Shown: one piece after another, positions 19-28,770 of the stretch
How positions within the stretch are numbered: position 1 is the stretch's first letter
Layout: every line of letters begins with the position of its first letter
Origin: Candidatus Omnitrophota bacterium
Lineage (GTDB): Bacteria; Omnitrophota; Gorgyraeia; Duberdicusellales; 4484-171
NCBI GenBank assembly: GCA_037146775.1
Contig: JBAWWL010000004.1
Span: forward strand, 86,471 to 150,470
DNA: 64,000 bases
Direction: 5' to 3'
The notes under the pieces: model-generated
Database searches by the model: none
What the model was told of the DNA's origin: nothing
The model's input: the letters and a program-made list of their open reading frames with translations, nothing else
Position numbers and translations under genes: made by a program

Positions 19-1848
19 TCAATCATTCTCGATAAATTTATTATTCCAGAGGGTTACATTTATCCATTTCCATATTTGCCTGCTTGCGTCTATCTGATTG
101 CGTATGTGCTTCTGATACATTTTAAAACACTGTTTCTGGTCGAAAAATGGGGATTTACGAAAATTATCCGAGTTTAAAATAGTAAGTATGAATTCTTTGA
201 ATCTGGGCTCCCTAAACCATTGCGCACCGGGATTATCGAACCCGATCTTATCTTGCCTATTTCTAATTTTCTCAGGTAAAATTTTTTTCATAGCTTCTCT
301 AAGAATCCATTTATTTTCTCCCTTTCTAATTATGAACGAACTATGGGAACTTAGGGCTTTTTCTACTATTCGATGATCCAAAAAGGGCACCCGCGATTCC
401 AACGAAAACCTCATTGCATTTCTATCTTCCCATTTAAGAAGATGTTCCAATTTGTGTTCGAAATGCTCTATAAGGCTGCTATTTAAACTTTGTGCTTGAT
501 ATAAAATATCCGGTATGGTTAAGTCTTGCCTAAATTGTGATAGAAATTCCAAAGATAGGCTGGTATTTTCTGACACCTTTATTCTCGATTTAATTTTCCC
601 GGACAACAAGAAGTATAAAAATGATTTTAGCCCAAATAATGACTTATGTCTCAAACAATAATAAAAAATTTCACTAAGGAGTGTGTTAAATTTTCTTTTG
701 CACAGTAATTCCTTAAAAAATGTGCCGAAAAAATAATGATACCCCGCAAAGATCTCATCCGCACCTTGTCCGTCCAATAAAACGACTGCGTGGGCTTGCG
801 CCAACTTCATTACCTCGTAATGCACAAAAGGGGCTATGTGCCCGACAGGCTCGTCTATATAGTAGATGAAATCGTGTATGTCGTTTAAAATGTTATCCGC
901 GCCTACATAGGTCTTATATAACCTTTGTCCTAATGCATCCTTAAATTCGTCGATATACTCACTTTCGTCACCGTATTTGTTTTTTCCGTAAACCGCGGAA
1001 AATGTTTGCAAATTATCTTTTTTTAATTCTTTCAGCAGTATGGAAACAATTGTGGAAGAATCTAGGCCGCCACTTAAACATATTCCCAGAGGAACATCGC
1101 TCCTCAAGTGCACATGAACAGAATTAATTAAATCCTCTTTCAATTCTTCGGGGCACGTATAACCTTTTTTTAAATTATCTCTCAGATTGTACCACCTGTT
1201 CATAGAGAAATTATCATCTTTTATTGATATTGTGTGGCCGTGCGGTAACTTTTTAATGCCTTTCAAGAAGGTATCCTCATCATAATCGGTTCGATTGAAA
1301 ACAAGATAGTTATACATTATCTTTTTGTTAATTTCTTTATTTTTTAAAATATGGCTGAAAGGTTTTAGTTCTGAGGAAAAGATAAAAGTATCTTCTGACA
1401 GATAATAATATAAGGGTTTTATACCAAATCTATCTCTGGCCAAAAATAAGTTTTTGTTTTCTATATCAAGTATGGCAAACGCAAACATTCCATTAAATTT
1501 ATCCAAACATCCCGGCCCCCATTCTATAAAAGAGTACAAGACAACTTCCGTATCTGTATTGGAAGAAAAACTATATTTTTGCCTTAGCTCTTTTCGTAAT
1601 TCTAAATAATTATATACCTCACCATTATAAACAATACAAAACCTTCTGTCCGCACTAAACATGGGTTGGTTGCCCTTATCGGTAAGATCTAGAATACTTA
1701 GCCGTAATGCGCCAAGACCCACATGACGGTCAATAAACTGCCCTTGGGCATCCGGGCCACGATGCTGGAGCGACTGAGACGTACGGTATAAGATTTCTTT
1801 ATCTACATCTTTCCCATTAAAATTAAACATTCCGTAAATTCCGCACAT
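19..1848 (-). CDS. asnB: asparagine synthase (glutamine-hydrolysing), AsnB/WbpS-like amidotransferase
   Basis: N-terminal MCGI (Cys2 Ntn nucleophile) and SGGLDSS PP-loop motif; 609 aa; sits inside a glycosyltransferase cluster. Confidence 0.8.
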   Translation of the reverse strand: MCGIYGMFNFNGKDVDKEILYRTSQSLQHRGPDAQGQFIDRHVGLGALRLSILDLTDKGNQPMFSADRRFCIVYNGEVYNYLELRKELRQKYSFSSNTDTEVVLYSFIEWGPGCLDKFNGMFAFAILDIENKNLFLARDRFGIKPLYYYLSEDTFIFSSELKPFSHILKNKEINKKIMYNYLVFNRTDYDEDTFLKGIKKLPHGHTISIKDDNFSMNRWYNLRDNLKKGYTCPEELKEDLINSVHVHLRSDVPLGICLSGGLDSSTIVSILLKELKKDNLQTFSAVYGKNKYGDESEYIDEFKDALGQRLYKTYVGADNILNDIHDFIYYIDEPVGHIAPFVHYEVMKLAQAHAVVLLDGQGADEIFAGYHYFFGTFFKELLCKRKFNTLLSEIFYYCLRHKSLFGLKSFLYFLLSGKIKSRIKVSENTSLSLEFLSQFRQDLTIPDILYQAQSLNSSLIEHFEHKLEHLLKWEDRNAMRFSLESRVPFLDHRIVEKALSSHSSFIIRKGENKWILREAMKKILPEKIRNRQDKIGFDNPGAQWFREPRFKEFILTILNSDNFRKSPFFDQKQCFKMYQKHIRNQIDASRQIWKWINVTLWNNKFIEND

Positions 1849-1857
1849 ATTTTTTAT

Positions 1858-2940
1858 TTATTTAAATTTAAGTTGGTATTGACCGTCTTTCTTCAGGACA
1901 GCAAAGCTTTCTGGATAATTTTCTACAAACCACACCATAAAAGCCGTGGTATCAATATTGTCTTCCATAATCTTTTCTTTTTTACCGCGCCATTTTTCTT
2001 TCAGAAAAGAATCGCTTAATATTTCTATCCCTTTTTGGATGGATTTCTCATATTCGGAAAAAGAGCTGCCAAAATTGAAAATCGTTCCGTACTTTTCTTC
2101 TTGTTCCCTTGTATAATCACGCCCCTTAAAATCCACATAAATTGCCGGGGTTCCTAATAGCGCTGCTTCCGAGGCAGTTTTTGCGCCTTCGGAATAAACT
2201 AGCGCAGCATGATACAGCGCGGCGTGCATTTTCTCGGGTGGGATTGTAATATTGAATTTGTCTAGGCATGACTCCGTCTTCTCTTCCGAAGAAATAAAAA
2301 CTTTGGCATATTTACTGAATTCTTCGACGCATTTGATTTTATATTTTAACGGCATTCCTTTATATCCAAAATCGTGGGTAGCATTTTGCGCGCTAAAACG
2401 TATTATTACAAATTTTTCTGATTCTTTTACTCCTAATTCTGCTAAAACGCTGCTGTCGACGCTGAAATATTTCGGGTGTAGATACGCCAATTCGTGATAC
2501 CCTCGATATGTTATATGTTTTTTACCCAAATTCAGCTTAAGGCTTTCCGGGGATAAAATAATATCCGTAAAGGGTTTATAAAGAAAGATCTGTTCGAGAT
2601 TGCCGGTGTCTTCCATCGATATATGCGGCTTTCGCATTAATTTTGAAACAAAAGCAAAAGCGATGGATCCATGGCTTAAAAATAAATCCGGGTGAAATCT
2701 CACTGAGAACTTTAGTGTTTTAAAAACGAATCTAAACAAACATGCGATTTTTCTCAAAAATCCAACACCGAATTTTCCTAATACGATATACTTACATCCG
2801 TATTTTTCTAATAAGTACGCTGAGCATCCTTTATCTCGCACGGTAAAGAAAACTTCATGCCCTTTTTTCTCTAAAGCCCAGGCAATATTCTTAAAAAGAT
2901 GCACGTGGGCAGGATGACCAATATCAATTAAAATTTTCAT
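1858..2940 (-). CDS. DUF354 family protein (GT-B / UDP-GlcNAc 2-epimerase-like fold)
   Basis: N-terminal MKILIDIGHPAHVHLFKNI...GHEV..TVRDKG pattern typical of DUF354. Confidence 0.55.
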   Translation of the reverse strand: MKILIDIGHPAHVHLFKNIAWALEKKGHEVFFTVRDKGCSAYLLEKYGCKYIVLGKFGVGFLRKIACLFRFVFKTLKFSVRFHPDLFLSHGSIAFAFVSKLMRKPHISMEDTGNLEQIFLYKPFTDIILSPESLKLNLGKKHITYRGYHELAYLHPKYFSVDSSVLAELGVKESEKFVIIRFSAQNATHDFGYKGMPLKYKIKCVEEFSKYAKVFISSEEKTESCLDKFNITIPPEKMHAALYHAALVYSEGAKTASEAALLGTPAIYVDFKGRDYTREQEEKYGTIFNFGSSFSEYEKSIQKGIEILSDSFLKEKWRGKKEKIMEDNIDTTAFMVWFVENYPESFAVLKKDGQYQLKFK

Positions 2941-2945
2941 CTACC

Positions 2946-3764
2946 TTAATATGTTGGGCTCATTGTGGCGATAGGCGTGAGGCCGGCGTATACCGGATAA
3001 CCCTCGCGTATTAATAACCTGGCTTCCGTGGGCAAAATGATATCAACCTGCGATCCAAAAACTATTTTTCCTATTTTATCGCTTCGCCGAACTAGCTGCT
3101 TTTCTTCTACACAAGTCTTTATTCTACGCACCATGCGCGAAGCTATCTGGATAACCCCTATGAGACGATTGCCGTTCTTTATGACAATGATGTTTCTTTC
3201 GTTTTGACTGCAGGAATCCGGCAACTTGAGTGACATAAATTTTCCCGCACAATGTTTTATGAGCACTATTTCTCCTTCTGTCGGTGCCCTATTTACATGC
3301 ACATCCAATATCGACATACTAATTCCAATAAGCCAGCAATCAGTATCTAATATGCTTGTCGCTGCGATTTCATCCAAACGGATATTGGCTTTTCCTTTTA
3401 TGGAGGTTGGGATAATGCCTTTTTCCACTTTCCGTATATATATTACTCTGCCATCTGCCGGAGAAACTATAATATTTTTATCGCCATGAAATTGCCTTTC
3501 AGGATCTCTGTAAAATCTCAGCAAAATAACACCGATTATGCTTATAAACAGGGCAAAAATGTTCAGGAAGAAAATCACGGTTGGATTACTGCCATGCATA
3601 ACTATCGCGATATCAATAATAGAGCTTACAAACACGGCAATGATGGCTTCCCGGTAAAAACAACTTTTTGGTAATTTTAATTTATTATACAGAAATAAGA
3701 AAATGAGAAATATGAACAAAACATTCGGAAAAACCAATAACCAATAGCTCACTGTCTCCTCCAT
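2946..3764 (-). CDS. phosphatidylserine decarboxylase family proenzyme (Asd-type, pyruvoyl-dependent) with N-terminal transmembrane segment
   Basis: FYRDPER, SPADG, DVHVNRAP motifs and FGSQV near the C-terminus (LGST-like self-cleavage site); hydrophobic N-terminal 80 aa. Confidence 0.6.
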   Translation of the reverse strand: MEETVSYWLLVFPNVLFIFLIFLFLYNKLKLPKSCFYREAIIAVFVSSIIDIAIVMHGSNPTVIFFLNIFALFISIIGVILLRFYRDPERQFHGDKNIIVSPADGRVIYIRKVEKGIIPTSIKGKANIRLDEIAATSILDTDCWLIGISMSILDVHVNRAPTEGEIVLIKHCAGKFMSLKLPDSCSQNERNIIVIKNGNRLIGVIQIASRMVRRIKTCVEEKQLVRRSDKIGKIVFGSQVDIILPTEARLLIREGYPVYAGLTPIATMSPTY

Positions 3765-4906
3765 ATTATATACGGCAGAAGCAAGGCGTACATCAAGGTG
3801 GGCAGCATATCGTCTTTTGAAAAGATTGCTATTTCTTTTTTAATTCTTAAAGAATTTATATATTCCTTGATACCAATGCGATGCCTTGCTAAACAATTTA
3901 TAAATATAAAAAAGTCGGTAAAAGGATCTACCCACCCCACGTTGGACAATTGATTAATTTTCGGAACCGAATCTTTACCTTCAAAATAATCTATTAACAT
4001 CTTTATAAGATTAATTTCTAATGCATGGGTTATAGAGTGCCACTTCCACGTGCGCGGATTAATTTCTAACAGTTTATATGTACCGTCTTCTTCGTCCCAC
4101 ATGAATTCTATTTCTGACAACCCGCAATAATTGATGCCCTTTAAAAATCTTATGGCGTTGTTTTCTATTTCCTTATTCAATACGCTAATAGCAAAGGTGG
4201 TGGAATTACCAAAATCCATAGGTCTTTGCCGTAGCCTGTTTACCACAACTCCTCCGATAGTTTTTCCATCAACAAAAAATGACCCGAAAGAATAAAGATT
4301 TTTTGCCCCACCGCCTATTATTCTCTGAATAATAATATCCTTGGCGCCTATAATATTTTCCGCTAACTTATAATTACGTACCAACTCTTCCCTGGTGCGG
4401 CAAGGCAAAACTTTTTTACCGACCTTATTAAACAGCTTAAACATGATTGCTGGTTTAATAATAACCGGATACCCTATTTCTTCGGAAAAGATTAAAGCCT
4501 CCTCTAAAGTATGGGGATAACGCGAATCAGGAAAATGGACACCTAATTCTTCGGCTTTTTTATAAGTAAGGATTTTATTAAAACAGGTTTCGGTGACTTC
4601 TTTTGGCGGTATAGAGATAAAAAAGCAATTATGCAGCGTGTCGTAGTTTTCCATCAAAAATCCTACCATCATATCGTTGGTTGGCATCAAAATAGTATCT
4701 TTTTTATCATTATATAATTTTGTTATTTGCTCAATCAAATCCTGATCGTTTTTAAATATAACTGTTTTCGTGCAATATTTAGAAAATCTCGCGAGAGATA
4801 ACCCGTGGTCGGTAAAAAGATTTATCTCTACGCCCAGTCTTCCGGCTATCTGCGCTACGCCTAACGCCTGGATATGATTGCCTAGAATAATTATCTTCTT
4901 AATCAT
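3749..4906 (-). CDS. ATP-grasp domain ligase
   Basis: LEINPR motif characteristic of the ATP-grasp C-domain; Gly-rich N-terminal Rossmann-like region. Confidence 0.55.
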   Translation of the reverse strand: MIKKIIILGNHIQALGVAQIAGRLGVEINLFTDHGLSLARFSKYCTKTVIFKNDQDLIEQITKLYNDKKDTILMPTNDMMVGFLMENYDTLHNCFFISIPPKEVTETCFNKILTYKKAEELGVHFPDSRYPHTLEEALIFSEEIGYPVIIKPAIMFKLFNKVGKKVLPCRTREELVRNYKLAENIIGAKDIIIQRIIGGGAKNLYSFGSFFVDGKTIGGVVVNRLRQRPMDFGNSTTFAISVLNKEIENNAIRFLKGINYCGLSEIEFMWDEEDGTYKLLEINPRTWKWHSITHALEINLIKMLIDYFEGKDSVPKINQLSNVGWVDPFTDFFIFINCLARHRIGIKEYINSLRIKKEIAIFSKDDMLPTLMYALLLPYIIWRRQ

Positions 4907-5670
4907 CAGCTATTCCTGGCCTTCTGAAGTAACATTTTAAACAGATTTCGAATATTCTGACCAACGAACTCAACAGCCCAGCCGCACATATCGTCATTCC
5001 ATCTATTAGGATGAATATTTAACATAATACCATCCGGAAGCTCTCCTCTTTTCAGCGCGGACATAATTTCACAAGTATTATTGAATTTATAAGCGAACTT
5101 GGTGTTGACCTTATCTCTTATGTTCGCTGTATCAGCGTTCCAACTTCTTCCTGTGTCTGTGAGATAAAAAATTTTATTAAAATCCATGGAGATACATGTT
5201 TCTCCCATTATTCCTAAATCAATGAAATTATACTTCTCCCACAATTTTTTATTGTCCCATTTTGAAAACGGCGAGCCATGCGCACAAATTGTTTTTACCG
5301 CTGTAATGTTCTGGAATTCCCCCAATTCTTTCTTAAAAAGCTCGATAGCTTTTCCATAATTCCCGCCCGCCTTTGCCAAAACTTCGTAGTGATATCCAAT
5401 ATCGTGATTTAAATTATAAATTTCTTTTATAATATTTTCGTTAAACGTTTGTGGGTATCGAAAATAATAAGATGCAGATATACCCATTCTTTTTTCTGTC
5501 TGGGCTAATCGTAAAGCACTATGCATCCCCCTATCAACATCGTGCCTCAAAATGCAAGTTTTACCGGTATATTTTTTCTGCAGAAAATCTGAAACATTTA
5601 CAATCTGATAGCCATTGTGCAGCAGGCTTGTGTATAGTTCCATCAAAATTTTTACTGTGAAATCTAACAT
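4906..5670 (-). CDS. polysaccharide deacetylase (carbohydrate esterase 4-like) family protein
   Basis: LRHDVD motif resembling NodB motif 1 variants of polysaccharide deacetylases. Confidence 0.45.
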   Translation of the reverse strand: MLDFTVKILMELYTSLLHNGYQIVNVSDFLQKKYTGKTCILRHDVDRGMHSALRLAQTEKRMGISASYYFRYPQTFNENIIKEIYNLNHDIGYHYEVLAKAGGNYGKAIELFKKELGEFQNITAVKTICAHGSPFSKWDNKKLWEKYNFIDLGIMGETCISMDFNKIFYLTDTGRSWNADTANIRDKVNTKFAYKFNNTCEIMSALKRGELPDGIMLNIHPNRWNDDMCGWAVEFVGQNIRNLFKMLLQKARNS

Positions 5671-5688
5671 TTCGTTTTCGTAAAATAA

Positions 5689-6681
5689 TTATTGGTTATT
5701 TAATAGCCCTAGCCAATTACTCCTTACCTTTTCCCAAGTAAAACTCATCACTTTTTTATACATATTTTCTCTAAAAGAATCGTACGTGTGTGGTTTTTCT
5801 AGAACGTTACATATATGTTCGCTCAATTTTTTATAATCACCTTTATCAAAAAATATACACTCATTATCGCCATACACGGTAGGCGTTCCGCCGCATCTGG
5901 CAGAGATAACCAGCATTTCAGAAAATCCAGCTTCAACAAGTTTCAAAGGGAAATTGTCGCCGAAGGACGTATTCAAGAGAACGCAACATTGTTGATATTC
6001 TTTCAATAATTCGGTACGCGGCAAAAACCCTTTAAATATTATCTTTTGATGAGCGTATTGTTTTTTCAATTTATCGAGGAGCGGCCCATTGCCAAAAAAA
6101 TAAAATTCTATGTCGTTTCTTTCTTTTAGAACCACTTCGCAAGCCTTGAGGGCCGTTTCAGGATCATACATAAATTGAAACGAACCAATCCAAAGAAATT
6201 TTTTGTTCCAATCAAAATTCTTTTCTCTTTTTGGAAAATTTCCGTAGTGGAAATGATACGGAATAAGATGGGTATTGAATTCGTATTGGTTAAAAATATC
6301 AAAAAGATACTTTGAGGCAACGGTTACCGGGATTTTTCCTAAAAATAGCCTGACCGTCGGGCCCCATCGATTCATGAACGGCCCGGGATAGCCTTCGTGA
6401 AAATCTACTATAACTTTTTTACGAAAAAACCTGGCTGCGATCACCCCCACAAAAATCGGCAAAAATCCGTAGTTGCTGCAACCCGCAGCCATAATTAAAT
6501 CGTATCTAGGGACGATTTTAAAAATATGCGCGATGCTTTTGATTCTATCTCTTATCCTACCGTGTGTAGAGGCAACGTCTACGCAAAAGCCTTCTTCCCT
6601 AAGGCTTCTCACCAATTCCTCAACGGCCCCGGAAAGACCTCCCCAATTAGACCTATAGTTCATGACCGTAAGTATCTTCAT
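5689..6681 (-). CDS. glycosyltransferase family 4 (GT-B)
   Basis: GT-B C-terminal E..G pattern (KLVEAGFSEMLVISARCGG); 4-bp overlap with the upstream gene. Confidence 0.6.
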   Translation of the reverse strand: MKILTVMNYRSNWGGLSGAVEELVRSLREEGFCVDVASTHGRIRDRIKSIAHIFKIVPRYDLIMAAGCSNYGFLPIFVGVIAARFFRKKVIVDFHEGYPGPFMNRWGPTVRLFLGKIPVTVASKYLFDIFNQYEFNTHLIPYHFHYGNFPKREKNFDWNKKFLWIGSFQFMYDPETALKACEVVLKERNDIEFYFFGNGPLLDKLKKQYAHQKIIFKGFLPRTELLKEYQQCCVLLNTSFGDNFPLKLVEAGFSEMLVISARCGGTPTVYGDNECIFFDKGDYKKLSEHICNVLEKPHTYDSFRENMYKKVMSFTWEKVRSNWLGLLNNQ

Positions 6682-8528: not shown

Positions 8529-8531
8529 TTT

Positions 8532-9788: not shown

Positions 9789-9916
9789 ATGGTGACCATA
9801 TTTTGTGTTTATCTGGTTCTTTTCTTTGTCTATCCCTGACTAGGCCGACATAACGCTTCGTACGTAATCTGCGCAACAGGACTATTTATATAACACATGC
9901 CCCTCTTTAGCGTCAG

Positions 9917-11841: not shown

Positions 11842-11994
11842 GTATTTCTTTTATTCTTGCATCAAGCATTGTTTCACCTTATATAATCCGGGTTTCGTTC
11901 CCTGCGATATACACGCCAAGCGGAAAAAAATATGTAAGGCTTTGTCTTAATGATCACCGCACACACACAAAGAGCCGCTGAATATAATAATTAT

Positions 11995-16831: not shown

Positions 16832-17024
16832 CTCTTCTCCTCCTTTACCTCCGCAGCGACAGGCGTCCTATCGCACAAACAGGTACGTAAACTAAGTAAA
16901 TTTTTGTGTGCGCAAAAATCACAACGCTGTTTTCGAAACATTATCATTGCGCTTTGCCAGCCCGATTCTTGATGAATATTGCCTTCGGCGTTTTGCTCTT
17001 ATGTGAGCTGGATACTTTCAAGAA

Positions 17025-18431: not shown

Positions 18432-18447
18432 AATCGTTTACGCGCTA

Positions 18448-20277
18448 CTAGTAGAATTTCTGCTCTTGCCAATATTCGTAAAATTTACCTTTCCGCGCAA
18501 GCAAATCTTCCAAAGATCCCTCCTCAACAATTCTACCTTTTTCCAACACCAAAATCTTATCCGCATGTTTGATGGTAGAAAGACGGTGGGCAATGGCGAT
18601 GACCGTTTTTCCTTGTAGCGTTTCACTTATTGATTCCTGGATCAATCGTTCGGTCTTTGAATCCAACGAACTTGTTGCTTCATCCAAAATAAGTATGTCG
18701 GAGTTTTTAAGCAAAGCTCTGGCTATAGAAACTCTTTGCCGTTCTCCTCCGGAAAGTTGTACGCCCCGGTCACCAATATACGTATCAAACCCGTCGGGTA
18801 AACTTGTGATAAAATCGTATAAACGCGCTTTTTTGGTAATGCCGACAAGTTCTTCCTGCGATACGGCCCGCCTCAAACCATACACAATATTGTTTCTGAA
18901 GGTATCATTGAAAAGCCAGGTGTCTTGGCTGACTACCGCCACGGAAGCCATTAGAGAAGCAGGGGTAAATTCACGGATGTCAATCCCATCAATCAGTATG
19001 GAGCGCGGCGGACAGTCATAAAAGCGTAATAAAAGATTTATGCAAGTGGTTTTCCCGCTCCCGGTCGGACCTACTAAAGCTATCATTTTTCCTTTTTCAA
19101 TGGAAAAAGTGACGTCTTTCAATACGGGCGTGTCGCTGGTATACGAAAAATTCAAATGCAGCATTTCCAATGCCCCGGTCAACCCGGTAAATGTTTTAGC
19201 ACCGCCGGTGATAATGTATTTGTCTTTATCCTCTAGCATATGTCTCACAACGGCCAGCGGGCCGCTAATGCTCGCAAACGCGGATCGCATCTGGTTTAAG
19301 GAGTTAAAAGTGGTTTGCGATTTTTTCAGGAGATAAAAAAATACCAAAAAACTTCCTATCTCAATGGTTTTGGTTTTACCCACCATAAACGCCATAAAAG
19401 AAAGAAGAAATAAAGTTGCCACCTGCACAATCACATCCTGCAGGGGACCGACCAAAAGCTGCTTCTTCTCTATGCTAAATTCCAACGTTTGTACTTCATC
19501 GCTTTTTGATGCGAATACCTTTTTTTCTTTTTCTTCGTTAGTATATAATTTAACCAGCGGCATACAAGATAGCACATTGAAAATATTTTTGCCGAGAGCG
19601 CTATACGCTGTTATGTAACTTTTGGAGGTTTTTTTTATTTTCACCATCAGCCACTTCAGGGAATAATTAAGGATCGGAAGAATAGTGATAATAAAAATAC
19701 TTACCTTCCACGAAATGAAAAACATCATCATCAAATACACCATCAGCATCAGAAGATAGCTTAACATACTTCCCAACCCCGCAAGTTGAGCGGTAATAAA
19801 TGTGATAAAATCTAATATTATGCTCTGAAGATACCCCGCGTTGTTGCGATCGAAAAACAATTTACCGAATATCAGATAACGATCAAAAAGAAGTTTTCTA
19901 AGTTCGTTGCCAAACCTTTTAATTTGATACGCGGCAGTGACTGATGCCAGATATTGAAATACATTTTTGGTTATCGAGGCGATAAACACGGTAAATACCA
20001 GCATTACAAAAACAGGGCTTCTTGGCGCATCAAATAGAGCGGGAAACGTGGCGATAATGGTCTTAAAAAATGGCATCACGCGCACAAAATGGAAGTCCAT
20101 CTTAATGATTCCGTTGGCCATAGGTATAAGAATACTCACGGCTACCGCTTCAAACAAAGCTGCGCCGACAGAGAATGCAATTGTTGCGATAAAATAAGCG
20201 GGACGCACGCCTACTTTACGTAAGAACGCCTTAAGCTGCATCGTGTTGAGATATATTTTTCTGATTTTCGTACCCAT
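18448..20277 (-). CDS. ABC transporter permease/ATP-binding fusion protein (MsbA/PglK/Wzk-like exporter)
   Basis: N-terminal six-TM domain; Walker A GPTGSGKTT, ABC signature LSGGERQR and Walker B ILILDEATS. Confidence 0.85.
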   Translation of the reverse strand: MGTKIRKIYLNTMQLKAFLRKVGVRPAYFIATIAFSVGAALFEAVAVSILIPMANGIIKMDFHFVRVMPFFKTIIATFPALFDAPRSPVFVMLVFTVFIASITKNVFQYLASVTAAYQIKRFGNELRKLLFDRYLIFGKLFFDRNNAGYLQSIILDFITFITAQLAGLGSMLSYLLMLMVYLMMMFFISWKVSIFIITILPILNYSLKWLMVKIKKTSKSYITAYSALGKNIFNVLSCMPLVKLYTNEEKEKKVFASKSDEVQTLEFSIEKKQLLVGPLQDVIVQVATLFLLSFMAFMVGKTKTIEIGSFLVFFYLLKKSQTTFNSLNQMRSAFASISGPLAVVRHMLEDKDKYIITGGAKTFTGLTGALEMLHLNFSYTSDTPVLKDVTFSIEKGKMIALVGPTGSGKTTCINLLLRFYDCPPRSILIDGIDIREFTPASLMASVAVVSQDTWLFNDTFRNNIVYGLRRAVSQEELVGITKKARLYDFITSLPDGFDTYIGDRGVQLSGGERQRVSIARALLKNSDILILDEATSSLDSKTERLIQESISETLQGKTVIAIAHRLSTIKHADKILVLEKGRIVEEGSLEDLLARKGKFYEYWQEQKFY

Positions 20278-20318
20278 AGTACTGGCTCCTCAACCGTTGA
20301 TTGAAAGAAAAGGGAATG

Positions 20319-20945
20319 TTATTGGCGAGAAACGTTAACTTTTTTTTCGAATCGTTCCCAGCCACCCCTTAAACTGATCAAGAAAGATATGCAGATTAGT
20401 TTTAAATCTAAAAGAAAATTAAATTTCTTAATATATTCCAAATCATATTTTAGTTTCTCTTCGACATCGGTATCGTGTTTACCGTTGACCTGGGCTAAGC
20501 CGGTTAAACCCGGCCGCATTGCGTGCCGATCAGCGTATCTTGGCACGGTTTTAATAAACTTTTCGACAAAAAAAATGCGTTCCGGCCTTGGCCCAACAAC
20601 ACTCATATCCCCTTTTAAAATATTGAGAAGTTGTGGAGATTCATCCATTGCACTCGCACGTAGAATTTTGCCTAATTTAGTTACTCGCGCATCCTCCGGC
20701 CTCGACCATACGGGCCCGGTCTCTTTTTCGGCATGCTTTATCATCGACCGAAATTTAAGGTGCCGGTAAATTTTACCGTCCTTACCTACCCGTTCATCGG
20801 TAAAAAAAATCGGCCGGCCATCTTCGAGTATAATGGCAAACACGATCAATATCCACAAGGGCAACGCAATAATTATCCCTGTTATGGAAAAAACCACATC
20901 AAACAACCGTTTTATTTTAAGCTGAATGAGCCTATTCTGTACCAT
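20319..20945 (-). CDS. undecaprenyl-phosphate sugar phosphotransferase (small PglC/WbaP C-terminal-type bacterial sugar transferase)
   Basis: KRLFDVV...PLW single re-entrant helix followed by the conserved catalytic domain (KFRSM, PGLTGLAQV); 208 aa. Confidence 0.75.
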   Translation of the reverse strand: MVQNRLIQLKIKRLFDVVFSITGIIIALPLWILIVFAIILEDGRPIFFTDERVGKDGKIYRHLKFRSMIKHAEKETGPVWSRPEDARVTKLGKILRASAMDESPQLLNILKGDMSVVGPRPERIFFVEKFIKTVPRYADRHAMRPGLTGLAQVNGKHDTDVEEKLKYDLEYIKKFNFLLDLKLICISFLISLRGGWERFEKKVNVSRQ

Positions 20946-21437
20946 GATCTTGCTGTTTCTTTCGGTTCCGCGTAAAACTCCACTACATTATACGCACTCA
21001 ATAAAAAACGTATCTCGCCAATATTAATCGTGCCTCGTAATCGGCTCATTTTGCGTAAAGAACCTCTCTCTACGCAAATTTTAACGCGAAGGCACTCCAT
21101 GAACGCGGCCACAATATCTAAATTCATCCGCCGAAGACGGATAAATATTATCTTATACTAATATTAATTTATTAGCAACGAATTTATATAAATATGGCCG
21201 CAAAAATGTGCCCTATTCGTTTCCCGCATAAGGAAGAAAACGCTAAAGCTCTCTACGCGGCAGCCGCAAATAGATATTCATGTCTTTGTTTTACGAGAAC
21301 CTTAGTGGAGGTGCTGGCAGGGTCACGTTACGGTATTGAGCGATGCGCTGAATAGCCGGCTTTTCTGGTCCGGATGTGGATAGACAAGTAACGTTACTCT
21401 TAGGATGTACGATGAATTTGCATTCCACTATAGGAGG

Positions 21438-21827
21438 CTATTCTCCTCTTCTTTCTCCTATAATATTAGATATCTCTTCAAAATTAATCTCTTTTCTAGA
21501 ACCATCGTCGCAGCCTGACTTAACTATATAGCGGGAGTTGTTTTGTTCTGCATAAACGATATATTGGCCGTCTTTAGAAAAAATGGCGAATGTTTCTCTA
21601 ATAGACGGGGTACGAGTAATCTGTTTGGTCTCGCGCCCATCCAGCTTTTCCATCCAGATATCATTGTTCTTTTCTACAAGCCTGTATTCGCCGTGAGTAT
21701 CCAAAAGTTCATAGTCTGCTTCCCCGGAAACTATGGAAATAGTTGCATGCTCCGCTAACCCAGACAGACCGCTGATCACTAATAGCAAAAAAACTCTGTG
21801 CTTAAATTTATTGGCTATCCTTTGCAT
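21438..21827 (-). CDS. hypothetical secreted protein
   Basis: N-terminal signal peptide-like hydrophobic segment; no recognisable motifs. Confidence 0.35.
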   Translation of the reverse strand: MQRIANKFKHRVFLLLVISGLSGLAEHATISIVSGEADYELLDTHGEYRLVEKNNDIWMEKLDGRETKQITRTPSIRETFAIFSKDGQYIVYAEQNNSRYIVKSGCDDGSRKEINFEEISNIIGERRGE

Positions 21828-21872
21828 TTTACTACCTCCTATATGCCACGGTCTTTATCTTTGGAACGTATA

Positions 21873-22655
21873 TTATTTGTTTATTTTTTGTTCCCCTTTT
21901 ATATAAATAATGCCCATTCCAAAACCATCTTGTTGGGAATTATTGATCAATTCTGTATATTCGTAATCTTTCTTGATTTCTTGCCAAAACTTCGGCACCC
22001 CTCCGACATTACTATAAGTAGCAACCCCATACCGAGTGCGAAAATCATTGACAATATCGTGAAAAACGATCATACCGCCCGGCCTCACAAGACGAAAATA
22101 GCACAAGAAATCAAGCTTGACACCCTCGTAACTGTGATCGCCATCTATAAATAGAAAATCGATAGAAGACGGAAAAAAATTTTCTACTTGCTTCACTGTC
22201 GAACTCGCGTGAGAATCCGCTTCAAGCAAAATAACGTTATGGCCGGCGGGAATGTGGGCATATATTGTATCTTTGCCGTCAGGAAATTTTATATCAATAC
22301 CTACCATGGTCGCACCTGGCGTGGCTAACTCTGCGAAGCGAAACAGTAATCTACCCCTGGATGTCCCTATTTCTAAAATATTTTTTGGCCGAAGATCCTT
22401 TAACGCCAAGAGCAACCTGTCTATTTCTTCCTTGATTTGATTACCGTATTGTCCGCGGTTTCCATATTGCTGGTATCGCTGGTCCAACCGGAATGCGGCG
22501 GCGGTAGAAAACTTAGAAATAATTCGTTGTGCGTATTGAATATATCTTTTCATGTTGTCCACAAATTTCTTTTTAAACAACTCCTTACTTAGAAAACCAG
22601 GATAATCAATAGCCTTGCCTTGGAAATCCAAGACAAAAAGAGTACTACTTTGCAA
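21873..22655 (-). CDS. class I SAM-dependent methyltransferase (TylF/CmcI-like sugar O-methyltransferase family)
   Basis: LEIGTSRG ... FIDGDHSYEGV motif. Confidence 0.55.
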   Translation of the reverse strand: MQSSTLFVLDFQGKAIDYPGFLSKELFKKKFVDNMKRYIQYAQRIISKFSTAAAFRLDQRYQQYGNRGQYGNQIKEEIDRLLLALKDLRPKNILEIGTSRGRLLFRFAELATPGATMVGIDIKFPDGKDTIYAHIPAGHNVILLEADSHASSTVKQVENFFPSSIDFLFIDGDHSYEGVKLDFLCYFRLVRPGGMIVFHDIVNDFRTRYGVATYSNVGGVPKFWQEIKKDYEYTELINNSQQDGFGMGIIYIKGEQKINK

Positions 22656-22875
22656 GTTTTGGTTTGCCGTCTACGCCCAGCTTCCTCATCAATTTAAAAT
22701 TACCTCGCGCTATCACGCTCATGGATTAACTGTAGGTGAGCAGGAAATGCGTTTTTGAATAACTGCTTTATTGTCCGTGGGCTAAATGATAATAACGCGG
22801 CTGTAAAAACGGATATAATAAAATTATACCCATATTCCAGACACTAATTTTTGTGTAATTATTCCAAATGATAGT

Positions 22876-23865
22876 CTATTCCATTATTCTACATCTATTC
22901 TTTGCCGTTACCGTTAACATACTTTTTATGTATCTGTAAATCGGTTTTATTGAATAATAAAGTTTGGTGCCTAAAAAATTCTTGATCCTATTCTTTATAA
23001 TATGCATTTTTATGACGTCGTAAAATGTCTGTTTTTCTGTTTTAGTGAAAAAATCGTCGACAAAATTATTAAGCACTTTTCGTGTGGATTCCTGGTTGAA
23101 CCACATTGTTTTCATGTGTGAAATAAGCCACTGTCTATCTTGTTCTCCGCTAAATTGATCAAAAAATGCCAAGTGGACATCGCCCCTATCCTTTAATAAT
23201 CTGCATGAACCCATCCACCACAATAAGAATGTGGAACAATCATAATACTGCCCCGAAGTTTTTGCAGTTACTATTTGTTTTTTAGATACATACACCTCTT
23301 TGCTTGATTCATACATATCAACCAAATATGGAAAATGAGGATAACTATTCGCGAGATTGGCATAGGCGGACTCAATATTATTTTGAAACTTTTTGGTTTT
23401 AAATATATTGCATGGCAAAAAACTGCCAAATTTGAAATAATGATAGCCTTTTTCCATTAATTGTTTAGGTGTTAATTTTTCTCCGCCGTGGTTCCAGCCG
23501 GATGGGTGTGCTCCAACATGAATTAGATCTATTGCCCCTTCTTCGATAATTGCCGAAATATCTCCGATATCTTTCGGATCTAAATAATCATCGTCGCACA
23601 AAACCCATGTGTACAAAGATGAGCTCATCTCTATGGCTCTTACACAGTTTGCCCCCGCACCTATATTACATTTATGCGAAACTAAATTAAAATCTGCAAA
23701 ACTTTTCTTAAATTGACCGCACACGGACTCTGTATCATCTGTAGAGCAATTATTAAGCACTGTTATTTTGCAGTCCTTCAATGAGATATCCGTCAATGAA
23801 TTTAAGATATTTTTTAAAAATCCCGATCTATTATAAGTAATAATATATATTTCCAGATTTTTCAT
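22876..23865 (-). CDS. glycosyltransferase family 2
   Basis: N-terminal IYIITYNR...CSTDDT GT-A motif. Confidence 0.65.
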   Translation of the reverse strand: MKNLEIYIITYNRSGFLKNILNSLTDISLKDCKITVLNNCSTDDTESVCGQFKKSFADFNLVSHKCNIGAGANCVRAIEMSSSLYTWVLCDDDYLDPKDIGDISAIIEEGAIDLIHVGAHPSGWNHGGEKLTPKQLMEKGYHYFKFGSFLPCNIFKTKKFQNNIESAYANLANSYPHFPYLVDMYESSKEVYVSKKQIVTAKTSGQYYDCSTFLLWWMGSCRLLKDRGDVHLAFFDQFSGEQDRQWLISHMKTMWFNQESTRKVLNNFVDDFFTKTEKQTFYDVIKMHIIKNRIKNFLGTKLYYSIKPIYRYIKSMLTVTAKNRCRIME

Positions 23866-23915
23866 GTCTACCTTAGGCTAAAATTAGTATAAAGAAACGT
23901 GCCATTTGAAATATT

Positions 23916-25619
23916 TCACTTTATAGGTTCCATATCGGCGATCGAGGATTTAAACTTGATCTTAGGATAAACATTCAAAAAAATAGGTATCTCGACATTA
24001 AGCAGGGTCGGTGATAAAGGATCTCGCCAAAGCCACGCCAAGGCATTTTCTATTTCGGCGCGTTTTTGGATAGTTTTAGCAGCGATATTATACGCTGCTG
24101 ATATTTTTACAAAGTCCGGAGAGGTATATCCTACATGGGTTGCCGAATATCTCTTTGCAAAATATTCGTCTTGGAATTGACGGACCATGCCTAAGCAATG
24201 ATTATTGATAATTATCATTTTTAAAGGCAGGTTATTTCTTCTGACAGTTTCGAGTTCTTGAATATTCAACTGGAAACCCCCATCTCCAGCAATAAGAACT
24301 ACCGGTTTTTTAGGCATCGCGAAAGCCATACCAATAGCTGCGGGTAAGCCAAATCCCGTAGACCCCATCCCGCCGCTCGTCAAGAATCTCTGTTTTTCCT
24401 TAAGCTCAATAGACTGAGCTGCCCACATCTGATGTTGTCCGACATCTACCGCATATCCGACACAGGAACCGCTAAAACGCGAGATTATATGCATAAGCTG
24501 ATTCGGATTGATTTCGCCGCCACCGCAAGAAAGTTCTTTCGTGTCAGGATACTTTTTACGCCACTCCTTGATCTTCAATCTCCACTCATCAATACCGCTT
24601 TTTCTGGTTCCATTAATATTGCGTGTAGCTGAATTGAAAAATATCTTGAGATCGCAACAAAATATCTCACAGCGTTTCACGCGATTATTCAACTGGTTTT
24701 TATCGCAATCAATCTGAAAAATATCTTTATTTTCCCGAAATGCATTGGCATCTGATCCGGTCTGTCTGCTATCCAGACGGCTTCCTAAAACTAATAAACA
24801 ATCTGTCTCCTTGACAGCGAGATTCGCATATCTGTTACCATAAGAGCCTATCATTCCAACCCGGTTCGGATGTCCGTATGGTAAGACGTCCGCACCCATA
24901 AGACTATTAACGACGGGGATGTCGACTTTCTCTATCCACTTGAGAAAAAGATTCCTACTTCGAGAAGCTTGTATGCCACCCCCCACTAAAACCAAGGGTT
25001 TCTTTGATTTTGACAATTTTCTGTACATTTTATGTGTAAATTTTTCAAGAGCTTCGGAAAAATTATTTTTTGATTCTGGCAACTGTACATAGCTTTTTCC
25101 CGTCTCTTTTTGTTGAACATCTATAGGTATATCTATAAGAACTGGCCCTGGCCGGCCTTCCTTTGCCAACCAGAATGCTTTTTCTAGAACCCAAGAAATT
25201 TTACTGGTCTTATCAACCATCCAAGCACCTTTTACGATCGGCTTAACTATCGAAATAATATCCGCCTCCTGGAATCCCTGCTGTCTAACTCCGCTGGAAC
25301 CTTTAAAATCTTTTGTGCTAACCTGACCGGTTATAAAAACTACCGGGGAAGAATCAAAATAACAACTACCGATACCTGTGATAAGGTTTGTAGCTCCAGG
25401 ACCTGACGTTGCCATTGCAACTCCTGGCCGACCGGTCAATCTGGCATAAGCTTCAGCCGCAAAAGCCGCGGCCTGTTCATGATGCATAGAAATAAAGTTG
25501 ATTTTACCATGACGATAAATGGAGTCTACCAGGAAAGCGATCATGCCGCCAGTCATACCAAATATGACTCTTGTATTATTTCGAGAAAAAAAACGAGCCA
25601 GATAATCACTAGCTATCAT
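23916..25619 (-). CDS. thiamine pyrophosphate-dependent enzyme, acetolactate synthase large subunit-like (YerE-like candidate)
   Basis: 567 aa with N-terminal TPP_enzyme_N and C-terminal TPP-binding GDG...N motif (GDGGFQLN...NN). Confidence 0.75.
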   Translation of the reverse strand: MIASDYLARFFSRNNTRVIFGMTGGMIAFLVDSIYRHGKINFISMHHEQAAAFAAEAYARLTGRPGVAMATSGPGATNLITGIGSCYFDSSPVVFITGQVSTKDFKGSSGVRQQGFQEADIISIVKPIVKGAWMVDKTSKISWVLEKAFWLAKEGRPGPVLIDIPIDVQQKETGKSYVQLPESKNNFSEALEKFTHKMYRKLSKSKKPLVLVGGGIQASRSRNLFLKWIEKVDIPVVNSLMGADVLPYGHPNRVGMIGSYGNRYANLAVKETDCLLVLGSRLDSRQTGSDANAFRENKDIFQIDCDKNQLNNRVKRCEIFCCDLKIFFNSATRNINGTRKSGIDEWRLKIKEWRKKYPDTKELSCGGGEINPNQLMHIISRFSGSCVGYAVDVGQHQMWAAQSIELKEKQRFLTSGGMGSTGFGLPAAIGMAFAMPKKPVVLIAGDGGFQLNIQELETVRRNNLPLKMIIINNHCLGMVRQFQDEYFAKRYSATHVGYTSPDFVKISAAYNIAAKTIQKRAEIENALAWLWRDPLSPTLLNVEIPIFLNVYPKIKFKSSIADMEPIK

Positions 25620-25846
25620 ATTCGTAATCCATTTTCAAAATAGAAATTTAACGGTAATTCATTGATAAGCTGCACAAAACCGCAGGCGCAACAATTATAA
25701 ACTTCTAGATTGATTGCGCAGTTAAACTTCAGTTCGCTTTTCTTTAGCAACCGGAAAATATTTCTTGATATATTGAATACGTTAATGCATGGGGTCGGTT
25801 TTTTTTGAACCTCAAAGCCTGTATTCCCTCCGAACCCTATTCTTTC

Positions 25847-26767
25847 TCATGACGCTTTAAACCAATATACCGTCTTTTCTATACCTTCGTTCAATTCCAC
25901 TACAGGGATCCAACCCGAAGCACATTTTATTTTTCTGATATCTGCCTGTGCGTACATTGCCTGGTGCGTGTTATATTCAATAGCGCCATAATTGGGCTGA
26001 AGACGAGGATTTATCAGTTTTCGGAGTCGTTCTACAATCTTTTTTAACTGTGTGGCTTTACCTGAACCAAGATTAAATATCCCGGGAGTTTGATAATAAG
26101 CCACACTTAGAATTCCTTTAGCGGCATCATCGATGTATACATAATCTGCTGATTGTTTACACTTCGTAAGGCTGGGGGGTTTACCTTTAAACATTTCTCG
26201 AATAACATACGGTATCAACCAGTTAGGGTCTTGTCCCGGACCATAGATACCAAATAAGCGTAACCAGGAACCGATCATTCCATAAAACTGGCACAAACCA
26301 AGCCCTGACCAACAACAAGCTAATTTTACTTTCCCATAAACAGTGACTGGATTTGTCGGAAATAATTCATCTGTTTTCCTGTTGGGATCCCCATACTCGG
26401 AGCGTGAACCTATGCCAACCCATTGGCTACATCCTACTTCATGCGCAAATTTGACAGTACTTTGAGTTAAAGGTATATTATCCGTCACTTGGAATAATTG
26501 ATTTCTATCGTCTCCCGCCACTCCATGCCAAGCTAAATGAATTAAGGTTCTTGGTTTATATGCTTTAATTGCGGCGACTAAATTTTTATTTTTAAGTGTT
26601 TCATAGGTAAAAGACCGATATCCCTTAATATCCTTAATTCTATCTAAATTTGAAATAGTTCTTGTTAAAATGATGGGATTATTCCCGTCTTTAATAATCT
26701 GTTTTAACACAGCGGAACCTACAAAGCCGGTTGCCCCAGTTAATACTATCGTTTGTTTTTTTCGCAT
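25847..26767 (-). CDS. NAD-dependent epimerase/dehydratase family (SDR) protein
   Basis: TGATGFVGS Rossmann motif; YxxxK implied. Confidence 0.75.
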   Translation of the reverse strand: MRKKQTIVLTGATGFVGSAVLKQIIKDGNNPIILTRTISNLDRIKDIKGYRSFTYETLKNKNLVAAIKAYKPRTLIHLAWHGVAGDDRNQLFQVTDNIPLTQSTVKFAHEVGCSQWVGIGSRSEYGDPNRKTDELFPTNPVTVYGKVKLACCWSGLGLCQFYGMIGSWLRLFGIYGPGQDPNWLIPYVIREMFKGKPPSLTKCKQSADYVYIDDAAKGILSVAYYQTPGIFNLGSGKATQLKKIVERLRKLINPRLQPNYGAIEYNTHQAMYAQADIRKIKCASGWIPVVELNEGIEKTVYWFKAS

Positions 26768-28641: not shown

Positions 28642-28644
28642 AAT

Positions 28645-28766: not shown

Positions 28767-28770
28767 TAAA

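Follow-up and report, generated by a model that had tools for sequence, protein, structure and literature searches.

An ATP-grasp ligase and a PSD-family pyruvoyl decarboxylase share a conserved cassette in a glycan-assembly locus of an Omnitrophota bacterium

Members of the phosphatidylserine decarboxylase (PSD) family are known mainly as lipid head-group decarboxylases. Sugar tailoring by amino acids has been described for the Wbp/Vim pathway of Porphyromonas and Tannerella, which makes a sugar that carries type IX secretion cargo. In this pathway, the C-2 N-acetyl group is taken off by VimE, a putative carbohydrate esterase family 4 (CE4) deacetylase, the amine bared in this way receives Ser or Gly from VimA, a protein matching the NCBIfam model TIGR03019, and the AsnB-like WbpS turns a uronic acid into a uronamide (PMC7468200). 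Genes resembling VimA, the deacetylase, and AsnB occur together in other phyla as well (PMC7468200). Two routes lead to the cross-bridges of peptidoglycan: amino acids are added by Fem/Bpp transferases, which depend on tRNA, or D-Asp is added by a ligase of the ATP-grasp type, which forms a beta-aspartyl phosphate and joins it to the epsilon-amine of lysine, the alpha-carboxyl then being amidated by the AsnB-like enzyme AsnH (PMC4155827). Here we describe a PSD-like decarboxylase that is encoded next to an ATP-grasp ligase (AG1) in a glycan-assembly locus of a Candidatus Omnitrophota metagenome-assembled genome (MAG). The locus lies at positions 19 to 26767 of a 64,000-nucleotide stretch of contig JBAWWL010000004.1 (positions 86,471 to 150,470), referred to here as the window; coordinates of its features are given in Table 1.

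The initial annotation had described a glycan-assembly locus with an unusual set of tailoring enzymes, and the domain assignments made here for the window proteins with Pfam and NCBIfam models, judged against their gathering scores or cutoffs, bear out nearly every item on its list. No characterized serotype cluster was found to match the locus, and our searches of the open-access literature yielded no paper on a glycan pathway in which a member of the PSD family is paired with an ATP-grasp ligase. The chemistry that we propose falls into an established category, the N-aminoacylation of sugars after the Wbp/Vim or Fem/Asl pattern; neither the enzyme clade nor the decarboxylation step seems to have been described before.

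A separate PSD clade and its ATP-grasp partner

The PSD-like protein of the window contains three N-terminal transmembrane (TM) segments (residues 7-25, 40-58, and 63-81), followed by a PS_Dcarbxylase domain with the motifs SPADG (residues 101-105), DVHVNRAP (154-161), and FGSQ (236-239). Across 26 homologues, SPADG, DVHxNxxP, and G-S-Q are invariant, and the predicted self-cleavage site (Gly237-Ser238) and the Asp/His motifs for pyruvoyl formation are thus kept. The protein stays under the cutoff of all 14 NCBIfam PSD/Asd models, with the best scores obtained for NF003685 (173 versus 183 bits) and TIGR00164 (166 versus 230 bits), and it has no match among PDB sequences at an E value of ≤0.01.

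In a scan with one genome per species, we collected 80 PSD loci, which split sharply into two types. PSDs at least roughly 37% identical to the window protein carry [F/W/L]GSQ, while the others carry FGSR; the GSQ proteins are mostly 263 to 297 amino acids long (with a few open reading frame [ORF] calls outside this range) and have an N-terminal membrane extension, compared to 205 to 245 amino acids for the GSR proteins. The two types also differ in their genetic neighborhood. A homologue of AG1 is found in all 23 evaluable bacterial GSQ loci (in 20 cases directly upstream and in the same orientation) and in none of the GSR-type loci. A pssA homologue, in turn, adjoins 50 of 59 GSR-type PSD genes (directly downstream, as confirmed with Pfam, in 6/6 sampled loci) and is absent from all 27 cassette loci, the window included. 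This shows that the GSQ PSDs are a clade separate from the ordinary GSR-type PSDs. The window protein, below the equivalog cutoffs and without the pssA association, is accordingly very likely to be distinct from the phospholipid enzyme, and in these operons AG1 stands where the classical psd-pssA operon has PssA, which attaches the amino acid head group. GSQ-bearing homologues were also seen in two archaeal MAGs of the Thermoplasmatota and Nitrososphaerota (L024 and L026), where no AG1 homologue was found on the short contigs; the GSQ clade may extend to archaea with a different partner.

AG1 is predicted to be a carboxylate-amine ligase. Its AlphaFold2 (AF2) model is of high confidence (predicted local distance difference test [pLDDT] score of 93) and has the ATP-grasp fold, and Foldseek matches it to biotin carboxylase (E = 1e-20) and to 2pn1 (TM-score of 0.79). 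Its stop codon TGA (positions 3751-3749) overlaps the start of the PSD gene, so that the two genes are probably translationally coupled. AG1 ends in a conserved hydrophobic C-terminal tail, which together with the three TM helices of the PSD fits an action at the membrane. Several relatives of AG1 bear the automatic JGI names "D-aspartate ligase" or "ATP-grasp carboligase"; the locus showed no gene for an aspartate racemase. Our searches returned thousands of relatives of the PSD family and hundreds of AG1. The initial annotation had singled out AsnB, ATP-grasp, and PSD-like genes as a triad whose co-occurrence should be traced, and in this neighborhood comparison the link between the ATP-grasp and PSD genes proved to be real and strong, while the triad dissolved: the AsnB-type gene at the left edge of the window (AsnB1) is matched by a close orthologue (50% identity) in L006 and in no other related locus.

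What is conserved around AG1 and the PSD is a cassette composed of a Cys-less AsnB-like enzyme, a family 4 glycosyltransferase (GT4), a CE4-like deacetylase, the ATP-grasp ligase, the PSD, and a DUF354 protein. A metagenome contig from ENA (L001), whose PSD is 53 to 55% identical to the window protein, has the same gene order as the window (CE4-like, ATP-grasp, Cys-less AsnB-like, GT4, 252-amino-acid CE4-like, AG1, PSD, and DUF354) with identities of 47 to 66%, except for DUF354 (31%), and continues after the cassette with genes resembling those for WbpA, WbpB, and WbpD and with one for a Bac_transf protein. More distant relatives, e.g., in a Bacteroidales MAG and on a 2-Mb contig, keep the AG1-PSD core and an adjoining gene for a GT-B protein, which is DUF354 or, in L002, a WecG-family glycosyltransferase; most of them also have a CE4 protein, an AsnB-like protein of 550 to 590 amino acids, a second ligase, and a GT4. 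Carriers of AG1 and PSD are found in the Flavobacteriia, Bacteroidales, Cytophagales, Saprospiraceae, Cloacimonadota, Verrucomicrobiia, Anaerolineae, and Thermoleophilia, in a Shewanella MAG, and in other Omnitrophota, and include a cultured organism, Saccharicrinis sp. FJH62 (L013).

The position of AG1 and the PSD within the cassette can be taken by other genes. The closest relative of the window cassette, a locus retrieved by a metagenome scan seeded with DUF354 (L088; 60% identity for the AsnB-like enzyme AsnL2, 64% for the GT4, and 63% each for the 254-amino-acid CE4-like protein u254 and DUF354), has a single FemAB-family gene (Pfam FemAB, 3e-18) exactly in the AG1-PSD slot. The same holds for a second locus (L086), which combines AsnB-like, ATP-grasp, and GT4 genes with DUF354 (50%) and a CE4-like gene (44%). 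Both FemAB proteins match Pfam FemAB and Acetyltransf_6, with TIGR03019 as the best NCBIfam model, followed by FemX; queries with them in tblastn found no FemAB homologue in the 64-kb window. Among the evaluable loci, the gene directly upstream of DUF354 was FemAB in 18 cases and AG1 plus PSD in another 18 (5 of these DUF354-seeded), with AG1 plus a DegT aminotransferase (3 loci), a hexapeptide acyltransferase (3 to 4), and a HisF-like protein (3) as further occupants, and none of the queried families in 22 loci. All identified occupants make or modify a sugar amino group, and this equivalence of the slot points to a sugar amine as the site that is probably modified.

Some of these loci show additional features. 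In L108, L132, L154, and L095, an AG1-like ATP-grasp gene followed by a DegT-type aminotransferase lies directly upstream of DUF354, constituting a third variant of the module. L088 contains a B12-binding radical S-adenosylmethionine (SAM) enzyme within the cassette (2733-4169) and, downstream (8683-11869), a UbiA-family protein that exceeds the cutoff of the decaprenyl-phosphate phosphoribosyltransferase model (263 versus 234 bits), together with a PMT_2 GT-C protein; this set is reminiscent of the arabinan donor pathway of mycobacteria, here in a context that is not actinobacterial.

The remaining cassette proteins of the window are of mixed familiarity. DUF354, the anchor gene of the cassette, has more than 6,299 homologues and is well conserved (∼50% identity across phyla); its AF2 model (pLDDT of 92) resembles UDP-GlcNAc 2-epimerases (TM-scores of 0.67 to 0.70) and GT1-type glycosyltransferases (∼0.6) in Foldseek, and it could thus be a glycosyltransferase or a 2-epimerase-like enzyme, since the fold search fits both. 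The u254 family, recognized as CE4-like by a profile of 13 homologues, has the invariant motifs HDVD, HxxxYH, HGSP, and HPxRW and is co-conserved with DUF354 in PSD-type and FemAB-type loci alike. AsnL2 is likewise conserved in both cassette types. It starts with MITDI, has no Cys2 (nor any conserved Cys in an alignment of seven members), and carries the PP-loop motif TAGFDS; lacking the glutaminase Cys2, it falls outside the glutamine-dependent amidotransferase class, and its profile matches the hydroxyamidotransferase 7ylz (2e-12), AsnB, CarA, and beta-lactam synthetase in the PDB. Thus, of the two AsnB-like amidotransferases that had initially been annotated, AsnB1 stands as a canonical one, with an N-terminal MCGI (Cys2) and an SGGLDSS PP-loop that place it in the glutamine-dependent class, and AsnL2 does not. 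AsnB1, which is the last gene before the left window edge, may be WbpS- or AsnH-like in its role. The slot beside AsnL2 is variable, with an orthologue of the second ATP-grasp ligase (AG2) only in L008 and another ATP-grasp or CapK-like enzyme in the other loci, and the second CE4-like protein (CE4L) has orthologues in L001 (54%) and L005 (37%).

Proposed chemistry of the cassette and its alternatives

We propose that AG1 and the PSD attach an amino acid to a sugar and then decarboxylate it to leave a free amine, as a variant of the N-aminoacylation of the Wbp/Vim type, a reading that is drawn from gene content and homology and that we consider about as probable as its negation. The locus would assemble a lipid-linked (undecaprenyl-PP) oligosaccharide, with the PglC-like transferase as the initiator, the six GT4 and GT2 enzymes and possibly DUF354 extending the chain, the ABC exporter flipping it, and the Wzy_C-type protein ligating or polymerizing it. 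Within this pathway, a CE4-like deacetylase (u254 and/or CE4L) would bare the amine of an N-acetyl-hexosamine; as no DegT, FemAB, or hexapeptide transferase is found in the window, no source of a sugar amine other than CE4-like deacetylation is apparent there. AG1 would then acylate this amine with Asp or Glu via the side-chain carboxyl (beta or gamma), activated as an acyl-phosphate. The alpha-amino and alpha-carboxyl groups would remain free, creating a head group like that of phosphatidylserine, from which the membrane-anchored PSD-like enzyme would strip the alpha-carboxyl to yield an N-beta-alanyl (from Asp) or N-(4-aminobutyryl) (from Glu) substituent with a free primary amine. AsnB1 would probably amidate a remaining carboxylate, and AsnL2 and AG2 would probably make a further amide bond.

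The attachment via the side chain is suggested by the mechanism of the decarboxylase. Pyruvoyl decarboxylases form a Schiff base with the free amine beside the carboxyl that is removed, so that the amino acid has to be held via its side chain, as is serine in phosphatidylserine. In the sister loci, a tRNA-dependent transferase of the FemAB/VimA type (for Gly, Ser, or Ala) would do the work for which AG1 and the PSD are used here. That two enzymes should replace one could be explained by the fact that a tRNA-dependent FemAB delivers only proteinogenic aminoacyl groups and no omega-aminoacyl group.

Several findings weigh against this proposal. The fold search leaves DUF354 between a glycosyltransferase and a 2-epimerase-like enzyme. 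The link of AG1 to D-aspartate ligases comes solely from the automatic JGI annotation, and searches of the PDB with the single AG1 sequence, with a 47-member profile, and with the AF2 model in Foldseek return only generic ATP-grasp enzymes of the biotin carboxylase and carbamoyl phosphate synthetase type, which give no clue to the substrate. A UDP-sugar dehydrogenase is encoded near the cassette in L001, L008, and L025, so that a carboxylate, and not an amine, might be the acceptor, and the left end of the locus lies beyond the window, possibly with relevant genes. To our knowledge, no report lists amino sugars with N-beta-alanyl or N-(4-aminobutyryl) groups among the common substituents of glycans.

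The acceptor is a carboxylate in an alternative that we regard as unlikely, albeit deserving of serious attention: AG1 would activate the C6 carboxylate of a uronate and form an amide with an amine, and the AsnB enzymes would make uronamides. The PSD would either decarboxylate a free amino acid beforehand (Ser to ethanolamine or Asp to beta-alanine) or act on Lys or Orn attached by the side-chain amine, resulting in a cadaverine or putrescine amide. ATP-grasp amide ligases of Campylobacter capsules do act on glucuronate, and the WecG family, which replaces DUF354 in L002, typically handles ManNAcA. In addition, a UDP-sugar dehydrogenase and WbpB- and WbpD-like genes flank the cassette of L001, L088 has a WbpB-like gene, and the uronamide of the Wbp/Vim pathway is made by an enzyme of the AsnB type, WbpS (PMC7468200). 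Within the 64-kb window, where the locus is cut on its left, we found no UDP-sugar dehydrogenase and no WbpB-like or WbpD-like gene, and the dehydrogenase is equally missing within 10 kb of most cassettes. The occupants of the AG1-PSD slot elsewhere (FemAB, hexapeptide transferases, and HisF-like proteins) act on amines and not on carboxylates, and the three TM helices of the PSD argue against a soluble free amino acid as its substrate. An amino acid bound to a uronate via its alpha-amine, moreover, has no free amine for the Schiff base, which makes the version with a seryl or aspartyl amide that is subsequently decarboxylated chemically unlikely. This was the order of events favored by the initial annotation (a uronate amide decarboxylated to ethanolamine or beta-alanine), which thus conflicts with the needs of a pyruvoyl enzyme, and its wider suggestion of uronamide or uronic acid chemistry is less well supported than the modification of a sugar amine, which better fits both the slot equivalence and the absence of a dehydrogenase. 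A uronic acid dehydrogenase was also considered as an obligatory partner of the cassette and rejected, with a UDP-sugar dehydrogenase encoded within 10 kb in only 3 of ∼25 cassette loci.

Two further explanations would detach the cassette, or part of it, from glycan tailoring. The PSD might be an ordinary phospholipid enzyme that lies in the glycan locus by chance and provides phosphatidylethanolamine for membranes or as a phosphoethanolamine donor, in line with its strong PS_Dcarbxylase match, its membrane-bound nature, and phosphatidylserine and archaetidylserine decarboxylases as its best NCBIfam models. We give this hardly any credence, since the protein is below the NCBIfam cutoffs and belongs to the distinct GSQ clade with its extra N-terminal TM domain, pssA never accompanies the cassette, the pairing with AG1 extends over at least 7 bacterial lineages, FemAB replaces the PSD jointly with AG1 in sister loci, and no EptA-type phosphoethanolamine transferase is among the Pfam matches of the locus. 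A housekeeping role of the PSD-like protein was rejected on the basis of its clade, its AG1 pairing, and the 0/27 count for pssA. Alternatively, the product of the cassette could be a small glycoconjugate, soluble or membrane bound and made much as bacillithiol or mycothiol is, with the glycan locus being no more than a neighbor. A GT4, a deacetylase, and an ATP-dependent ligase are indeed the logic of BshA/B/C and MshA/B/C, and BshA and MshA are among the best NCBIfam models for the window GT4s. However, these matches are far below the cutoffs and represent generic GT4 similarity, the cassette is always found among further glycosyltransferases, initiating phosphoglycosyl transferases, and flippase or ligase genes, and in the window it forms one unbroken codirectional run with the glycan genes, with overlaps between them, so that we judge this explanation to be very improbable.

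Backbone genes, boundaries, and base composition of the locus

The locus is a single run on the minus strand, comprising 22 ORFs of at least 100 amino acids, all 22 on the same strand, with overlapping stop and start codons between several pairs of neighboring genes (Table 1). None of the genes is truncated. Protein lengths in the window equal those of the orthologues (609 versus 609 amino acids in L006 for AsnB1, 385 versus 382 to 385 for AG1, 268 to 272 versus 265 to 275 for the PSD, and 360 versus 360 for DUF354), and the locus therefore contains no pseudogenes; in particular, the AsnB, ATP-grasp, and PSD-like genes are neither truncated nor pseudogenized.

Table 1. Features of the glycan locus and of its right-hand border (positions in the window)
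Feature	Position	Strand	Evidence
AsnB1, canonical glutamine-dependent AsnB-type amidotransferase	19-1848	-	Asn_synthase 242 bits, GATase_7 151 bits, TIGR01536 445 bits (cutoff 267)
DUF354 protein, GT-B fold, cassette anchor gene	1858-2940	-	PF04007 76 bits
PSD-like pyruvoyl decarboxylase, GSQ clade	2946-3764	-	PF02666 PS_Dcarbxylase 130 bits (gathering score 22), residues 81-264
AG1, ATP-grasp carboxylate-amine ligase	3749-4906	-	CPSase_L_D2 48.6 bits (gathering score 19.8)
u254, divergent CE4-like deacetylase, 254 amino acids	4906-5670	-	No Pfam match; 13-homologue profile matches PgdA 2c1g (E = 3.7e-4) and other CE4 structures
Cassette GT4	5689-6681	-	Glycos_transf_1 69 bits; same position in L001 (66% identity) and L088 (64%)
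AsnL2, AsnB/beta-lactam-synthetase-like adenylating enzyme	6678-8528	-	GATase_7 31.7 bits; TIGR01536 75 bits, below cutoff
AG2, second ATP-grasp ligase	8532-9788	-	ATP-grasp_3 21.6 bits, below gathering score 23.2; PRK12767-type matches
CE4L, second CE4-like putative deacetylase	9917-10927	-	Polysacc_deac_1 23.1 bits, exactly at cutoff; HfsH 8.6e-7; HTFSH motif
Class I SAM methyltransferase with N-terminal Trm112/YcaR-like zinc ribbon	10924-11841	-	Methyltransf_11 42.7 bits; YcaR/Trm112 matches residues 3-45
GT4	11995-13113	-	Glycos_transf_1 98.7 bits
GT4	13110-14285	-	Glycos_transf_1 103.8 bits
GT4	14513-15802	-	Glycos_transf_1 82.5 bits
GT2 glycosyltransferase	15917-16831	-	Glycos_transf_2 60.8 bits
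Polytopic membrane protein, weak Wzy_C	17025-18431	-	Wzy_C 23.6 bits, below gathering score 31.7; ∼10-12 hydrophobic/TM segments
Fused ABC exporter, HepA/MsbA/PglK type	18448-20277	-	ABC_tran and ABC_membrane; HepA 486 bits, MsbA 384 bits, PglK 199 bits, all below cutoff
Small monotopic phosphoglycosyl transferase, PglC-like, initiator	20319-20945	-	Bac_transf 207 bits, 208 amino acids
129-amino-acid protein	21438-21827	-	No Pfam match; single N-terminal hydrophobic segment, residues 12-30
CmcI/rhamnosyl-O-methyltransferase-like SAM methyltransferase	21873-22655	-	Methyltransf_24 59.4 bits, RMNT_CmcI 39.9 bits
GT2 glycosyltransferase	22876-23865	-	Glycos_transf_2 58.1 bits
Thiamine pyrophosphate (TPP) enzyme, acetolactate-synthase large-subunit-like	23916-25619	-	TPP_enzyme N, M, and C domains; TIGR00118 499 bits (cutoff 538)
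Short-chain dehydrogenase/reductase (SDR) nucleotide-sugar epimerase/dehydratase, rightmost locus gene	25847-26767	-	Epimerase 105.9 bits; GC content at third codon positions (GC3) 0.313
tRNA-Asp (GTC), -Val (GAC), -Leu (TAA), -Cys (GCA)	28565-29364	-	Rfam and ARAGORN; right-hand border between locus and core genes

The backbone genes comprise four GT4 and two GT2 glycosyltransferases, the PglC-like initiator, an ABC exporter that is a putative flippase for a lipid-linked oligosaccharide, and the polytopic Wzy_C-type protein, which could be a ligase, a polymerase, or an O-oligosaccharyltransferase. No Wzx, Wzz, or Wza/Wzc domain was detected in the locus by Pfam or NCBIfam, the ABC exporter and the subthreshold Wzy_C protein being present instead, and the locus does not class as a Wzx/Wzy-dependent O-antigen or capsule cluster. 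This gene set, in which the initiator is PglC-like, the flippase is of the ABC type, a Wzy_C-type protein is present, and Wzx, Wzz, and Wza are absent, suggests that the backbone may be a short oligosaccharide transferred as a block, as in a PglK-type route, rather than a polymerized capsule. The acetolactate-synthase-like TPP enzyme has no ilvN or ilvC partner and lies between a GT2 and the SDR epimerase, and it may form a branched or acylated sugar; it could be a YerE-like sugar-branching enzyme rather than one of branched-chain amino acid synthesis.

Three SAM methyltransferases had originally been counted for the locus, two of which are within its range, while the third (27585-28346) lies outside and has a flank-like GC content. 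Of the two, the one next to CE4L combines its methyltransferase domain with a zinc ribbon, a fusion that is unusual for a glycan methyltransferase, and we can only speculate that it methylates the amine created by the cassette.

The GC content of the locus is 38.7%, compared to 42.8% for the remaining window (core flank), with 36.4% in the cassette portion (19-9788), and the mean per-gene GC3 is 0.391 versus 0.461 for the rest of the window (Mann-Whitney P = 4e-6), confirming that the locus is more AT-rich than the core flank. Given this low GC content and the adjoining tRNA cluster, horizontal acquisition of the locus is plausible. On its left, the locus is cut off by the window edge. Its right end precedes the tRNA cluster, which is housed in a 2-kb stretch without any ORF of at least 90 amino acids (28346-30323) between the AT-rich locus and gmk; this stretch is plausibly an integration or recombination border of a variable locus. 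Two further gaps are free of ORFs of at least 100 amino acids, one of ∼800 bp at the right locus edge (26767-27585) and one of ∼500 bp inside the locus (20945-21438), which may represent promoters or what is left of decayed genes.

To the right of the locus, the methyltransferase and the tRNA cluster are followed by gmk, yicC, ndk, parB, parA, and yidC, and further right, on the opposite strand, by dnaA, dnaN, gyrB, gyrA, glmS, pyrimidine synthesis genes, dcd, fpg, and a pabB/pabC fusion. The cumulative GC skew has its minimum at ∼33 to 35 kb of the window, and the locus therefore abuts the replication origin, with core genes on its right. Around this origin region (33963-36838), all genes leftward are on the minus strand and all genes rightward are on the plus strand; the GC content falls to 0.35 around yidC (34766-36202), and dnaA starts at 36838. 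An 800-bp gap without an ORF of at least 90 amino acids (33963-34766) may contain small genes such as rnpA or rpmH. Near glmS (45582-47411), the core flank also encodes a 621-amino-acid protein with a PMT_2 domain (GT-C, ArnT/PMT-like) and C-terminal TPR repeats (48341-50206).

Wider significance and comparison with known systems

With a separate and abundant PSD clade at work in glycan assembly, the reach of pyruvoyl chemistry would come to include the tailoring of glycans, and, if the proposed steps are correct, surface sugars would be predicted to bear new cationic substituents in the form of beta-alanyl or 4-aminobutyryl groups. For surface glycans, free amines are relevant for the immune modulation by zwitterionic polysaccharides, for altered resistance to cationic antimicrobials, and for protein attachment in Porphyromonas. 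The in-place exchange between FemAB and the ATP-grasp/PSD pair provides a testable pair of natural variants, and the cassette places two functionally uncharacterized families, DUF354 and the CE4-like proteins of 254 amino acids, in a working context.

A bolder extension is that the amine of an omega-aminoacyl "linking sugar" serves as the acceptor nucleophile by which sortase-like enzymes anchor surface proteins, the PSD then being the first member of its family to act on a glycan-bound amino acid; we rate this as a long shot. It has parallels in the linking sugar of Porphyromonas with its seryl amine (PorU), in the phosphatidylethanolamine-type anchors of rhombosortase substrates, and in the archaetidylethanolamine-type anchors of archaeosortase substrates. 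If true, it would reveal a widespread, unrecognized route by which Bacteroidota, Omnitrophota, Verrucomicrobiota, Chloroflexota, and Actinomycetota make glycans that anchor proteins or are zwitterionic. In Bacteroidota-like loci (L003/L004, 9988-16828, and L087, 12132-19083), the cassette adjoins genes for type IX secretion system (T9SS) cargo (Por_Secre_tail) and giant SprB/Ig-like surface proteins, which hints at a link between an amine-bearing glycan and the anchoring of surface proteins.

Among the described systems, the Wbp/Vim pathway shares with the window the proposed logic of a CE4-type deacetylation followed by N-aminoacylation and the presence of a GT4 and an AsnB-type enzyme in the locus, and the FemAB proteins of L086 and L088, which belong to VimA's NCBIfam family, are encoded at the corresponding position. 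Unlike this pathway, the window has no FemAB/VimA protein and contains the ATP-grasp/PSD pair in its place. WbpA/B/E/D genes, which provide UDP-2,3-diacetamido-glucuronic acid, are not found in the window with its left-cut locus but are present in L001 and L088, while DUF354 and the Cys-less AsnB-like enzyme of the window have no counterpart in the Wbp/Vim pathway. The organism is an Omnitrophota MAG, and no T9SS is evident.

The exchange of FemAB for an ATP-grasp enzyme has a direct precedent in peptidoglycan, which uses Fem/Bpp or Asl enzymes alternatively. As in the Aslfm/AslA plus AsnH system, we propose that an ATP-grasp ligase attaches an acidic amino acid via its side chain, with Fem as the alternative, and that a second enzyme neutralizes the free alpha-carboxyl; both systems also include a member of the AsnB family. 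The acceptor here, however, is presumably a sugar amine and not the lysine of peptidoglycan, and the alpha-carboxyl would be decarboxylated rather than, or besides, being amidated, with the likeness to Asl enzymes being one of annotation name only.

The classical psd-pssA operon has in common with the window the PF02666 domain, the SPADG, DVH, and G-S motifs, the membrane association, and an operon logic of attachment followed by decarboxylation. The window clade differs from it in having GSQ instead of GSR/GST and ∼60 extra N-terminal residues with additional TM helices, and it never adjoins pssA but lies with the ATP-grasp gene in glycan loci. Finally, in the glucuronamide of the Campylobacter jejuni HS:2 capsule, an ATP-grasp ligase amidates the uronate (with ethanolamine or serinol phosphate), and a pyridoxal phosphate-dependent decarboxylase acts on free phosphoserine. 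As far as this general comparison goes, both systems use an ATP-grasp ligase and a decarboxylase to put an amine or amino alcohol substituent on a surface glycan; in the Omnitrophota locus, the decarboxylase is predicted to be a membrane-bound pyruvoyl enzyme of the PSD family, and its context points to a sugar amine.

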